Source of the DNA: Parasitella parasitica NRRL 2501
Lineage: Eukaryota > Fungi > Mucoromycota
Reading direction: 5' to 3'
DNA: 46,051 nucleotides
Assembly (NCBI GenBank): GCA_025201805.1
Contig: MU619294.1
Coordinates: 30,247-76,297, forward strand
Part shown: positions 1,139 through 46,051 of the stretch, piece by piece
Layout of the letters: each line of letters begins with the position of its first letter
Numbering within the stretch: position 1 is the first letter of the stretch
The notes under the pieces: generated by a model
What the model was told of the DNA's origin: nothing
Seen by the model: only the letters and a program-made list of their open reading frames with translations
The model's database searches: none
Position numbers and translations under genes: made by a program

Positions 1139-2030
1139 TTACATAACCAACAATCGGTAAGTCTGAGTATTCCTAAACTCTATATTTCTCCTATGATAAT
1201 TGAAAGAAATGCAAAGCTGTCTAGCTGCAATATCAAAGTAGATGCTTCTAATTAAGTTCAACAGCTTATCACCTAGAAGAAGCATATCTTGAGGGATTGA
1301 AATGAGGTTTTTCGATCTATTTTCAATTAGTCCAAGAGTAGGAATAGCTCCTTGGCCAACCTGAAGAAGGTATTCAGCAAACCGTTGCAATTCAGCAGCA
1401 AAGCTGTTGTCATTTGATTCAAGGGCTTGTTGCACACGCATGTTGGTGTGCAGCCTCATCAATTGGACTTGTGGCCCGAAGCTGGCTTTGTTCAGGCATT
1501 GGCTTATAACCACGGATCTGCTGGCACCGCGGATAATAGACAAGACCTGACCAAAGTTACCACCAAAGACAATGAAAACACCCGCCAAAAGGAGCAGTGT
1601 TATCCATGATATCTTGAAAGGATCGATTGGCAGTTTTTATCAAGTCTTTGCTCACCATTGAACATCCATCCCAGACAATGATCTTTGCTCTCTTGCTAAA
1701 AGAAGCGATTTCTGATTGCGGAGTCATGCCACACACCGTGCTTATTGTTACATCTAATGTTATGTTGAATGTATAATGGGCAGTGCGCCCGCCTTTTAAC
1801 AACAATGCAGCAGTACCACTGGAATCAACAGCAATGGCAATCTCACCTTCCTGCAGCTGCTTGATATGAGCTTTGTAGATGTTCTTCAAAAGTTCTAAGG
1901 AACACGAAGGATGTAGCGCCAGAGACATGTAACAACAGTAACCTCGGGGGATATTTTTCAATATCTCTCGGGGAATACGGTATACATTCTTCCAATTGTC
2001 CCGCCAAAACCTGCTCTTCTTGGAGCTCAA
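1139..2030 (-). mobile_element. Degenerate Helitron RepHel fragment (PIF1-family helicase portion), frameshifted
   Basis: Two overlapping ORFs in different frames carry PIF1/Helitron motifs: SSGTAALLLKGGRTAH, IIVWDGCSM (normally WDEAPM), PFGG-(frameshift)-VFGGNFGQVL (normally GGDFRQ), LHTNMRV, FAEYLLQVGQG. Walker A and the C-terminal half are missing. Confidence 0.88.
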
Positions 2031-2309
2031 TACCTGGGATATCCTTCTAGATGAAAGGTGTATTTTTTTTTTTTTTCACAAAAGTTGACGTATGGTGTTT
2101 CCTTTGCAATCTCGTCATCAGGATTATTGGTGTTATACGGTACTTGAACCATGCAGTTAAAGTGCTTTCTGACAGTGAACGTTCTACGGTAATACCTCAG
2201 CGCTAGATTCTCGGTTGTTGATTGGTTCAGAAAACTTTTTTTTTAAATCCTGGATGGGCTATCAACTTTTTTTTTTTACAGCCTCTACACTTGCATTAAT
2301 TAGACCACG

Positions 2310-45158: not shown

Positions 45159-45449
45159 AATAGATGGTTATTTATGAATTCTCAAAGTCTACAAAGTTTC
45201 CACCTCAAGCCGCTTCCAATAAAAATAAATCAAAATAAGATCAGAGTATGCATAGAAGGATTTTTGTAACTTTATTGATACAATATCTATGAAGGATATC
45301 ATAGAAAACTAGTACTGAGGTGATATATTTTATGATACATTAATTTGAGGGGGTACTTTTTGACGTAAAGTAGACTGGGATTTTCTAGTTATATAAAAGA
45401 ATCAACTTTATTGTTTGTTAATTTAAATGGCTTAATACAGTTGACGAAA

Positions 45450-45580
45450 CTAGGTTGGGCCAATGAAAATAAATTTTGGTCATTTCCAAATTGAGTTGGG
45501 ACACGATTACAAAATTACAAAAATGGGTCACCAATACGAAAATGGGACAACAAGATGAAAATGGGACATGAGTACGAACA
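45450..45580. repeat. Subterminal short direct repeats (AAAATGGGACA-like), putative transposon end downstream of Fanzor
   Basis: gttgggaca (~45495), aaaatgggtca (~45520), aaaatgggaca (~45539) and aaaatgggaca (~45558), spaced ~19-23 nt apart. Confidence 0.55.
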
Positions 45581-45644
45581 TGGAGATAATGTTAGTATCT
45601 TTCAGAAGAGTCAGAATTGTTACAGCTTCTTACCTGCAATATCT

Positions 45645-46051
45645 TTAAGTTGCTGACTCACCGGAGTGAGCAGCAACAACCACATTGGAGGTGGCGGTAT
45701 GTCTTTTGAAGACCTGGGGGCGGCCATTTCCACACCAAATTGATGTGGCAATGGTGAGCATGTTCTTCGAGGCCATGGCATCGCGATTCCAGTAAATATT
45801 GCAAGTTTTACACTTCAATACCTGATAGATTTTGGTTTCCTCGTTGTCATGGCTTACCTTGAAATTCTCCAGATCTTCTTTGAGACAGTTGTTGCAGATC
45901 TATGAATAATCGGTTTTAGCTGAAAGTGCAATATGTGAATTATGTGTGTTTTTTCCTTAATAACCTTCGATGTTTTGAACTCATTAATATCTACAAGTAA
46001 TAGTTCACCAATTCTTTCTCTTGCTTGTAGTTGCTTGTATATTTTGTTCGA
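45645..46051 (-). mobile_element. 3' end of a Fanzor (eukaryotic TnpB-like RNA-guided nuclease) gene, running off the window; exons <46051-45965 and 45899-45645
   Basis: Manual translation: ...LLLVDINEFKTSK|ICNNCL...VLKCKTCNIYWNRDAMASKNM...GNGRPQVFKR...*. This is RuvC-II E, a CxxC..CxxC zinc finger and RuvC-III NRD, with a 65-nt phase-0 GT-AG intron at 45900-45964. Confidence 0.88.

Follow-up and report, generated by a model that had tools for sequence, protein, structure and literature searches.

A terminal intron in a Mucorales Fanzor1 element that may assemble the guide RNA

Main finding

We observed a second intron, downstream of the stop codon, in a Fanzor1 element on the minus strand at the right edge of a 46,051-nt window (the whole stretch of DNA that was analysed, from Parasitella parasitica NRRL 2501). 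This 184-nt GT-AG intron (45450-45633, minus strand; GTAAGA...CCTAG) spans nearly the whole right end of the element, and junctions in likely-RNA contigs indicate that it is very probably truly spliced. A terminal spliceosomal intron of this kind, likely assembling the guide RNA, is likely new relative to the papers searched, and it is apparently common across Mucorales Fanzor1 elements. The more interesting features, the end of the element and the second intron, were absent from a preliminary description of this DNA.

Little is settled about the way in which Fanzors obtain their guide RNAs in native eukaryotic hosts. If the reading proposed here is true, a guide assembled by the spliceosome would be a eukaryote-specific step with no TnpB or CRISPR counterpart, the reverse of what IStrons do. 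It would explain how a long DNA end occurs together with a short guide, and why yeast-expressed Mucorales Fanzors gave no TAM at first. It would also predict where scaffold and guide correctly meet in a very large family of possible editing enzymes, with 2181 representatives. Published work is cited below from the portions of each paper that were available.

The coding tail and its 65-nt intron

The Fanzor1 frame enters the window with the penultimate coding exon (45965-46051, minus strand), which is truncated on its 5' side by the window edge, contains the alternative RuvC-II Glu codon (45982-45980, minus strand) and ends ...INEFKTSK. A 65-nt GT-AG intron (45900-45964, minus strand; GTTATT...TCATAG) separates it from the last coding exon (45645-45899, minus strand), which encodes the C4 zinc finger, the RuvC-III Asp (codon 45782-45780, minus strand), the tail and the TAA stop that terminates the frame (45647-45645, minus strand). 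The last exon reads ICNNC...CKTC..WNRDAMASKNM, its Ile being the residue given as a dash in the preliminary description.

That description had claimed that the minus strand is open across the 65-nt intron, with no stop or frameshift in the visible coding part, and both claims were borne out. The spliced tail comprises 113 codons with 0 stops and 0 frameshifts. The joint 45899->45965, which skips 65 nt, was present in 3 of the 4 likely-RNA runs examined (X7, X16 and X17) and in contigs of 0 of 4 DNA runs (X1, X2, X6 and X8); X19 has a contig of a deletion form, which departs from the stretch at 45816. Because 15 GT/GC-AG splice choices leave a frame of at least 100 codons open (splice-choice scan), openness by itself cannot fix the intron position. 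The position is fixed by the RNA joint and by the match to annotated proteins: exon 45965-46051 is 100% identical to residues 709-737 of P0014, an 821-aa Mucor circinelloides protein, and exon 45645-45899 is 92% identical. An alternative 95-nt intron (45994-45900) was ruled out by the position of the RNA joint. A metagenome contig, L001, has a corresponding intron of 64 nt. The coding observation is confirmed as real.

Fanzor1 identity and relatives

The assignment of the tail to the RuvC-II/zinc finger/RuvC-III arrangement of Fanzor was supported by the alternative-Glu spacing, the C4 finger, the RD pair and matches to SpuFz1 (PDB 8GKH). After splicing, the alternative Glu stands six residues ahead of the first CxxC (E-FKTSKI-C), as in the Fanzor 'Ealt' spacing, in which the Glu lies six residues N-terminal to the first CxxC (PMC10711439); the signature motifs are used as defined in PMC10711439 and PMC10530073. 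The finger CNNC...CKTC is followed by WNRD, which aligns with YWNRD of SpuFz1, whose metal ligands are D383, E541 and D606 (PMC10432273).

The last exon alone matched 8GKH at E=1.7e-4, P0014 did so at E=1.7e-10, and a profile built from eight relatives at 2.3e-17. The preliminary description had named a profile search and a look for upstream RuvC-I as checks on its claim. The match of the last exon alone to PF07282 was weak (E=0.0048, under the Pfam cut-off), and a full-length relative passed that cut-off. The motifs of P0014 lie at TDG 471, DPG 515, alternative Glu 732 and RD 776-777. RuvC-I DPG was found in P0014 and in the 96%-identical L001, that is, in relatives rather than in the present copy, for which it lies outside the window; the same holds for the WED-domain TDG, found at 471 in P0014 and L001. 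L001 is 96% identical to window 46051-45702 at the DNA level (350 common bases), and its gene has six exons, five GT-AG introns and 803 codons without a stop, with 97% identity to P0014. Introns within Fanzor coding regions were already known from the literature available.

The window tail and P0014 share 106 of 113 residues. Four Mucor circinelloides proteins matched the last exon at 88-98% identity (4 of 9 candidates), and the best-match protein cluster has 36 members, including three 821-aa proteins. Longer relatives (12 of 1514 candidates) were present in other species of Mucor and in Rhizopus, Helicostylum and Rhizomucor, and the family counts 2181 representatives at E<=0.001. Metagenome contigs contained relatives at one locus, L001 (2 of 106 stretches); viral contigs contained none (0 of 134 candidates), nor did genome contigs (0 of 55). 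One viral contig (L002) matched the terminal 17-mer inside an unrelated reading frame, which we judged to be chance. The AlphaFold model of P0014 (mean pLDDT 48.6) was too poor for a fold search. Family members carry a long basic insertion (P0014 residues 625-685, KKYNKGKRKKTRANRKRRRR) between RuvC-I and the alternative Glu, likely a nuclear localisation signal or a RuvC insertion. A Fanzor1 in a TA-flanked element is almost certain, and the coding part by itself is an ordinary Fanzor1 member not described before.

State of the present copy and its family

The preliminary description had suggested a young or functional copy. This stood for the family, which is multicopy, has intact full-length members and yields spliced transcripts in likely-RNA contigs. 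In X1 a collapsed 2997-nt contig had a depth of 669 against a flank depth of 31.5; in X6 the values were 727 and 34.9 (about 21x), a contig depth and not a copy number. For the present copy the suggestion is no more than a possibility, since the gene's 5' 85% lies outside the window.

Compared with L001, the present copy differs at 12 coding bases across 95 codons (9 codons changed, 2 silent), which looks like drift as far as the aligned codons tell. All of one set of four runs differ from it at three positions (His to Tyr, Ile to Val and one silent). We dropped His762->Tyr as a sign of decay: among the 40 motif-bearing relatives in a set of 178 proteins, 8 have Tyr or Phe at this position and 26 have His. 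In P0017, a full-length relative, Asn replaces the RuvC-III Asp.

We also observed an internal deletion form in the likely-RNA runs X17 and X19, in which the INGGK region is joined to 45816 with loss of the alternative Glu and half of the zinc finger; protein P0004 is of like form. The X19 deletion form also carries the spliced 3' end. Such nuclease-dead deletion copies may supply guides, like ghost elements.

The element end and transposon type

The minus strand of the element ends ...CAACTG followed by TA, 207 nt past the stop, which places the terminus at 45438 and the TA at 45437-45436. At 45436 DNA contigs part into unrelated flanks (5 in X1, 5 in X2, 5 in X6 and 6 in X8), and every divergent flank branches after the common TA. 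These flanks belong to the right end only, and from them we infer a TA target-site duplication. The preliminary description had also proposed aligning genomic copies to define the ends; the divergent contigs set the right end at 45438.

The right-end region (45438-45569), delimited by depth and loose ends, begins with CAG after the TA on the plus strand and contains four short internal repeats. Up to about 45569 it is common to many other genomic repeats at very high depth. It is likely a long terminal inverted repeat, seen at the right end only; the window contains no second copy of the terminus. L001, which stops 471 nt ahead of the ATG, showed no terminal repeat match, and no DDE/D transposase was seen in the part of the element that it covers. 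A start of CAG behind the TA fits the Tc1/mariner pattern. ROr-1 and ROr-3 likewise begin CAG (Bao and Jurka supplement, PMC3627910). The host transposon is a multicopy, TA-flanked, likely Tc1/mariner-type element of a Mucorales fungus.

In X1 the terminal 50 nt (45433-45481) had a depth, summed over contigs, of ~240x that of the flank and much higher than that of the Fanzor body, which suggests that many short or unrelated elements share the same end. By analogy with SpuFz1, the 15 nt beyond the TA (45421-45435, minus strand) form the candidate guide flank; elsewhere in the window this sequence has one 3-mismatch site, which does not follow a TA. The insertion-site DNA (45184-45432) is itself repetitive, with depth 4-16x that of the flank and loose ends at 45184, 45305, 45340 and 45366, so the predicted guide of the present copy would derive from another repeat family.

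Contig evidence for splicing of the terminal intron

Contigs have loose ends at 45634, the exon side of the terminal donor. The last-exon contig of X7 leaves the match there, and its 14 loose letters equal 45436-45449. X16 and X19 contigs have the identical 14 letters at 45634, followed by two different flanks. The junction 45634/45449 was therefore present in three of the four likely-RNA runs examined, from three studies with organism labels A (X7), C (X16) and G (X19); it shows up as a loose end whose short side has 14 letters and was not called as a joint. Among the matches listed, it occurred in 0 of the 4 DNA runs (X1, X2, X6 and X8). Six likely-RNA runs were identified by guess and four examined, as contigs only, with the DNA coming from other samples.

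Depth inside the intron (45580-45628) was zero in X7, X16 and X19, where the last-exon contig is the joined form. The DNA runs X1, X2 and X8 have cover across the intron; the DNA run X6 has none at 45580-45628, so a coverage hole alone proves nothing. X17 yielded only intron-retaining contigs, the donor being intact in one and altered in another. That X7 is RNA is supported by its skipping of a host intron (44652->44721), and both X7 and X16 skip the 65-nt coding intron; the RNA status of X19 is without backing from the coding-intron joint.

The acceptor is the sole AG in the last 150 nt and is preceded by 147 nt without AG; of 20000 shuffles, 36 gave so long a run. The putative branch site, TGAC at 33 nt upstream of the acceptor, is weak.

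Predicted omegaRNA structure

Folding of the minus strand gave a predicted stem-loop 1 (45649-45677; 7 bp + bulge + 5 bp; z about -4) that overlaps the last codons, with a 5-bp hairpin just upstream (45695-45679). The 5' arm of predicted stem 2, UGCAG (45634-45638), ends exactly at the splice donor. Its predicted 3' arm lies in the last 12 nt of the element plus TA (45436-45449), a segment defined by DNA contig divergence and the fold. In the spliced fold a predicted 7-bp hairpin brings together UGCAG and the terminal CUGUA, which includes the TA. The layout is then a predicted 12-bp hairpin in the last codons, a 10-nt linker and the 7-bp hairpin. A second copy of the 3' arm lies inside the intron (45620-45625, minus strand) and is predicted to form an alternative 6-bp stem whose loop contains the donor; this hairpin is the minimum-energy fold of the unspliced RNA.

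The five basal pairs had a probability of 0.64-1.0 in spliced vs 0.08-0.93 in unspliced RNA, and fold z was -3.9 to -5.7 (eight start/end choices) vs -1.1 to -2.3. Taken alone, the terminal 65 nt, the place expected for a scaffold of the SPu-1 type, were unstructured (z -1.2). In a test designed after the pattern had been seen, 21 of 20000 shuffles gave an arm that complements the terminus and has GTRAG immediately behind it. No Rfam family reached its cut-off; two weak matches, far under the cut-off, were rejected.

The C-terminal SNVV tail, which lies over the predicted scaffold, is kept in 15 of the 40 motif-bearing relatives, many of them near-identical. One relative has the motif in the +1 frame, which points to a possible constraint on the RNA. 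Two natural variants in X17/X19 weaken predicted stem-loop 1, with no compensatory change seen.

The target-site duplication is part of Fanzor1 scaffolds (PMC10711439). SpuFz1 contacts only U35-G39/C71-A75 in stem 2, and C40-G70 is dispensable (PMC10432273); the terminal-intron donor falls just past the fifth pair, at the equivalent boundary between contacted and dispensable parts.

Comparison with known systems

SpuFz1 of the element Spu-1 (Spizellomyces punctatus; PMC10432273, 8GKH) resembles the present family in its DPG-type RuvC-I region, Ealt, C4 zinc finger and RD. It also lies in a TA-flanked element and has a two-stem scaffold that closes with a TA-containing stem and uses the flank as guide, as predicted here. 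Its stem 2 starts U-A, G-U with the TA duplication, again as predicted here. SpuFz1 differs in having a single exon and 30-33-bp inverted repeats, whereas the present family has five coding introns (L001). The SpuFz1 scaffold is unspliced and occupies the last 75 nt of its element (75 nt); the scaffold predicted here, in contrast, begins some 240 nt from the end, shares sequence with the last codons and is split by the 184-nt intron.

PpFz1, another Mucorales Fanzor1 from Parasitella parasitica (PMC11423790; Saito Table ID58/ID59), has a 7-bp first stem and a linker, and its omegaRNA carries the identical UGCAG arm followed by a GUAAG donor. It differs in that it was published from yeast as an unspliced 71-89-nt RNA with the 3' part assigned as guide. 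Both Parasitella omegaRNAs recovered in yeast (ID58 and ID59) extend further into sequence that resembles an intron, with ACUAAU and a pyrimidine run at the end of ID59, and their TAM is 'N.A.' in the Saito table (PMC10432273). PpFz1 later gave an ATN TAM, with a 4-bp second stem, and cleaves DNA in vitro with this unspliced-type scaffold and 4-bp stem (PMC11423790), so the enzyme can work without splicing. A PDB sequence search with P0014 or profile A2 did not match PpFz1; the proteins are therefore distant. The published PpFz1 omegaRNAs may well be unspliced precursors, judging by their arm, donor and intron-like continuation.

ROr-1, ROr-2, ROr-3, MCi-1 and PBl-1 (Bao and Jurka 2013, PMC3627910) are mariner-type Mucorales elements with TA or TAN duplications, intron-containing Fanzor1 genes and terminal repeats of 12-133 bp. 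By eye, in the supplement portions available, 6 of 7 Mucorales right ends share the arm-donor-acceptor layout (ROr-1, -2, -3, MCi-1, PBl-1 and -2): an arm complementary to the terminus plus TA, then a GT donor at a distance of 0-5 nt, and an AG that precedes the end by 2-26 nt. The arms differ, being UACAG in ROr-1, ROr-3 and PBl-2, UGCAC in ROr-2, UACAU in MCi-1 and UACC in PBl-1; the PBl-2 terminus is our own reading of the sequence. ROr-3 and PBl-2 have clear CTAAY branch sites. The layout was missing, by eye, in the MuDR-type PBl-3 and the chytrid SPu-1. The present family's motifs were not found in the 12 of 14 supplement files searched, its terminus was at no element end examined there, and the available text of PMC3627910 does not describe a terminal intron.

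IStrons (group I intron + IS605/IS607 TnpB; PMC10690162) also combine splicing and omegaRNA formation on the same transposon-end RNA. They self-splice, remove the whole element and sever scaffold from guide, so that the two processes are antagonistic. The 184-nt intron here is instead of the spliceosomal GT-AG type, lies inside the element and would join scaffold and guide; we found neither a group I intron that splices itself and removes the whole element nor an Rfam match at cut-off. A spliced Fanzor omegaRNA was not found in the literature searched. In the text available, 'splic' occurs 0 times in PMC10711439, once in PMC10432273 and twice in PMC11423790 (one on cyclophilins).

Proposed origin of the guide RNA and alternatives

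We propose that the transcript spans the gene and extends past the element end into the flank, as the contigs show for the family, and that the spliceosome would excise 45633-45450, so that 12 nt of the element and the TA remain, as seen in the contig junctions. The exon-end UGCAG is predicted to pair with the terminal CUGUA, including the TA, to give a 60-80-nt scaffold with the flank-derived guide directly after it. By analogy with SpuFz1, the RNA would be trimmed and loaded on Fanzor, which would direct cuts at empty insertion sites beside a TA-ending motif, with repair promoting re-insertion; this putative part in homing comes from published work on OMEGA systems (PMC13565253). Thanks to the intron, the element would retain a long DNA end for the transposase and yet make a short guide RNA.

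Assembly of the omegaRNA by the spliceosome is supported by the exact GTAAG donor and CTAG acceptor, the junctions in likely-RNA contigs and the closure of the stem on splicing, and by the same layout with differing arms in six other Mucorales elements. From the contig junctions, the folds and the SpuFz1 analogy, we lean towards the spliced RNA as the probable source of the working omegaRNA. A fuller model, which we offer tentatively at slightly under an even chance, is that the Mucorales Fanzor1 guide is built by the host spliceosome: a conserved stem-2 intron would remove the end repeat and fuse the scaffold to the flank guide, an intron-internal decoy arm would give an inert unspliced form with splicing as the on-switch, and the published PpFz1 omegaRNA would be the unspliced precursor.

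The joined contigs might come from genomic deletion copies that lack 45633-45450, or from assembly errors, without any splicing. Deletion forms do exist in the family (the P0004-like join at 45816 in X17 and X19), and the RNA runs were compared with DNA from other samples. We consider this explanation highly improbable, given that exact GT-AG signals mark the cut points, which agree across three organism labels, that the junction is absent from the four DNA runs among the matches listed, and that the donor and acceptor signals are mirrored in six unrelated elements. A real intron could also serve the mRNA or the host, by dropping an AT-rich repeat with termination signals or by softening insertions. 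The working omegaRNA would then be the long unspliced RNA, with the same 5-bp stem around the whole intron, or would be made otherwise. Some folds of unspliced RNA do form this basal stem (up to 0.93 when started at 45678), X17 has unspliced contigs, and published omegaRNA lengths vary widely (75-150 nt). This too is unlikely: the last-exon contigs of X7, X16 and X19 are the joined form with zero intron depth (45580-45628), the donor sits 0-5 nt past the arm in six other elements, and splicing keeps scaffold and guide together.

Splicing could, alternatively, act as a switch that competes with omegaRNA formation and yields mRNA only, as in IStrons, where the two are mutually exclusive (PMC10690162). 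The unspliced RNA would close stem 2 with the internal arm (45625-45620), carry an invariant element-encoded guide and bind Fanzor. This arrangement agrees with the 6-bp hairpin, donor in loop, as the minimum-energy unspliced fold, and yeast pull-downs likewise gave PpFz1 RNAs of the unspliced type, in an active complex. We regard it as quite improbable, since an internal guide would be unable to recognise empty insertion sites, and IStron splicing severs scaffold from guide whereas the terminal intron joins them. Baker's yeast requires a strict branch sequence, which would explain why the PpFz1 RNAs were unspliced under the reading that we prefer, assembly of the guide by splicing.

Surroundings in the window

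The neighbour genes are intron-bearing fungal genes. A glycoside hydrolase family 31 gene (PF01055; 42248-45158, plus strand) is convergent with the element and ends 280 nt from the element end. A Tc1/mariner-like transposase N-terminal fragment (13834-14298, plus strand), whose HTH domains are under Pfam cut-offs, does not carry the terminus of the Fanzor element. Broken pieces of a non-LTR retrotransposon reverse transcriptase lie at 28750-30733 (minus strand; weak RVT_1), and PIF1-like helicase fragments at 1139-2075 (minus strand; PF05970, E=1.8e-12) are likely a Helitron remnant. Three tandem related reading frames (22903-26237, plus strand; repeat families D7 and D11) contain Cys/His motifs and end in an 'IDH...GGSS...NLQ' segment that may be HNH-like.
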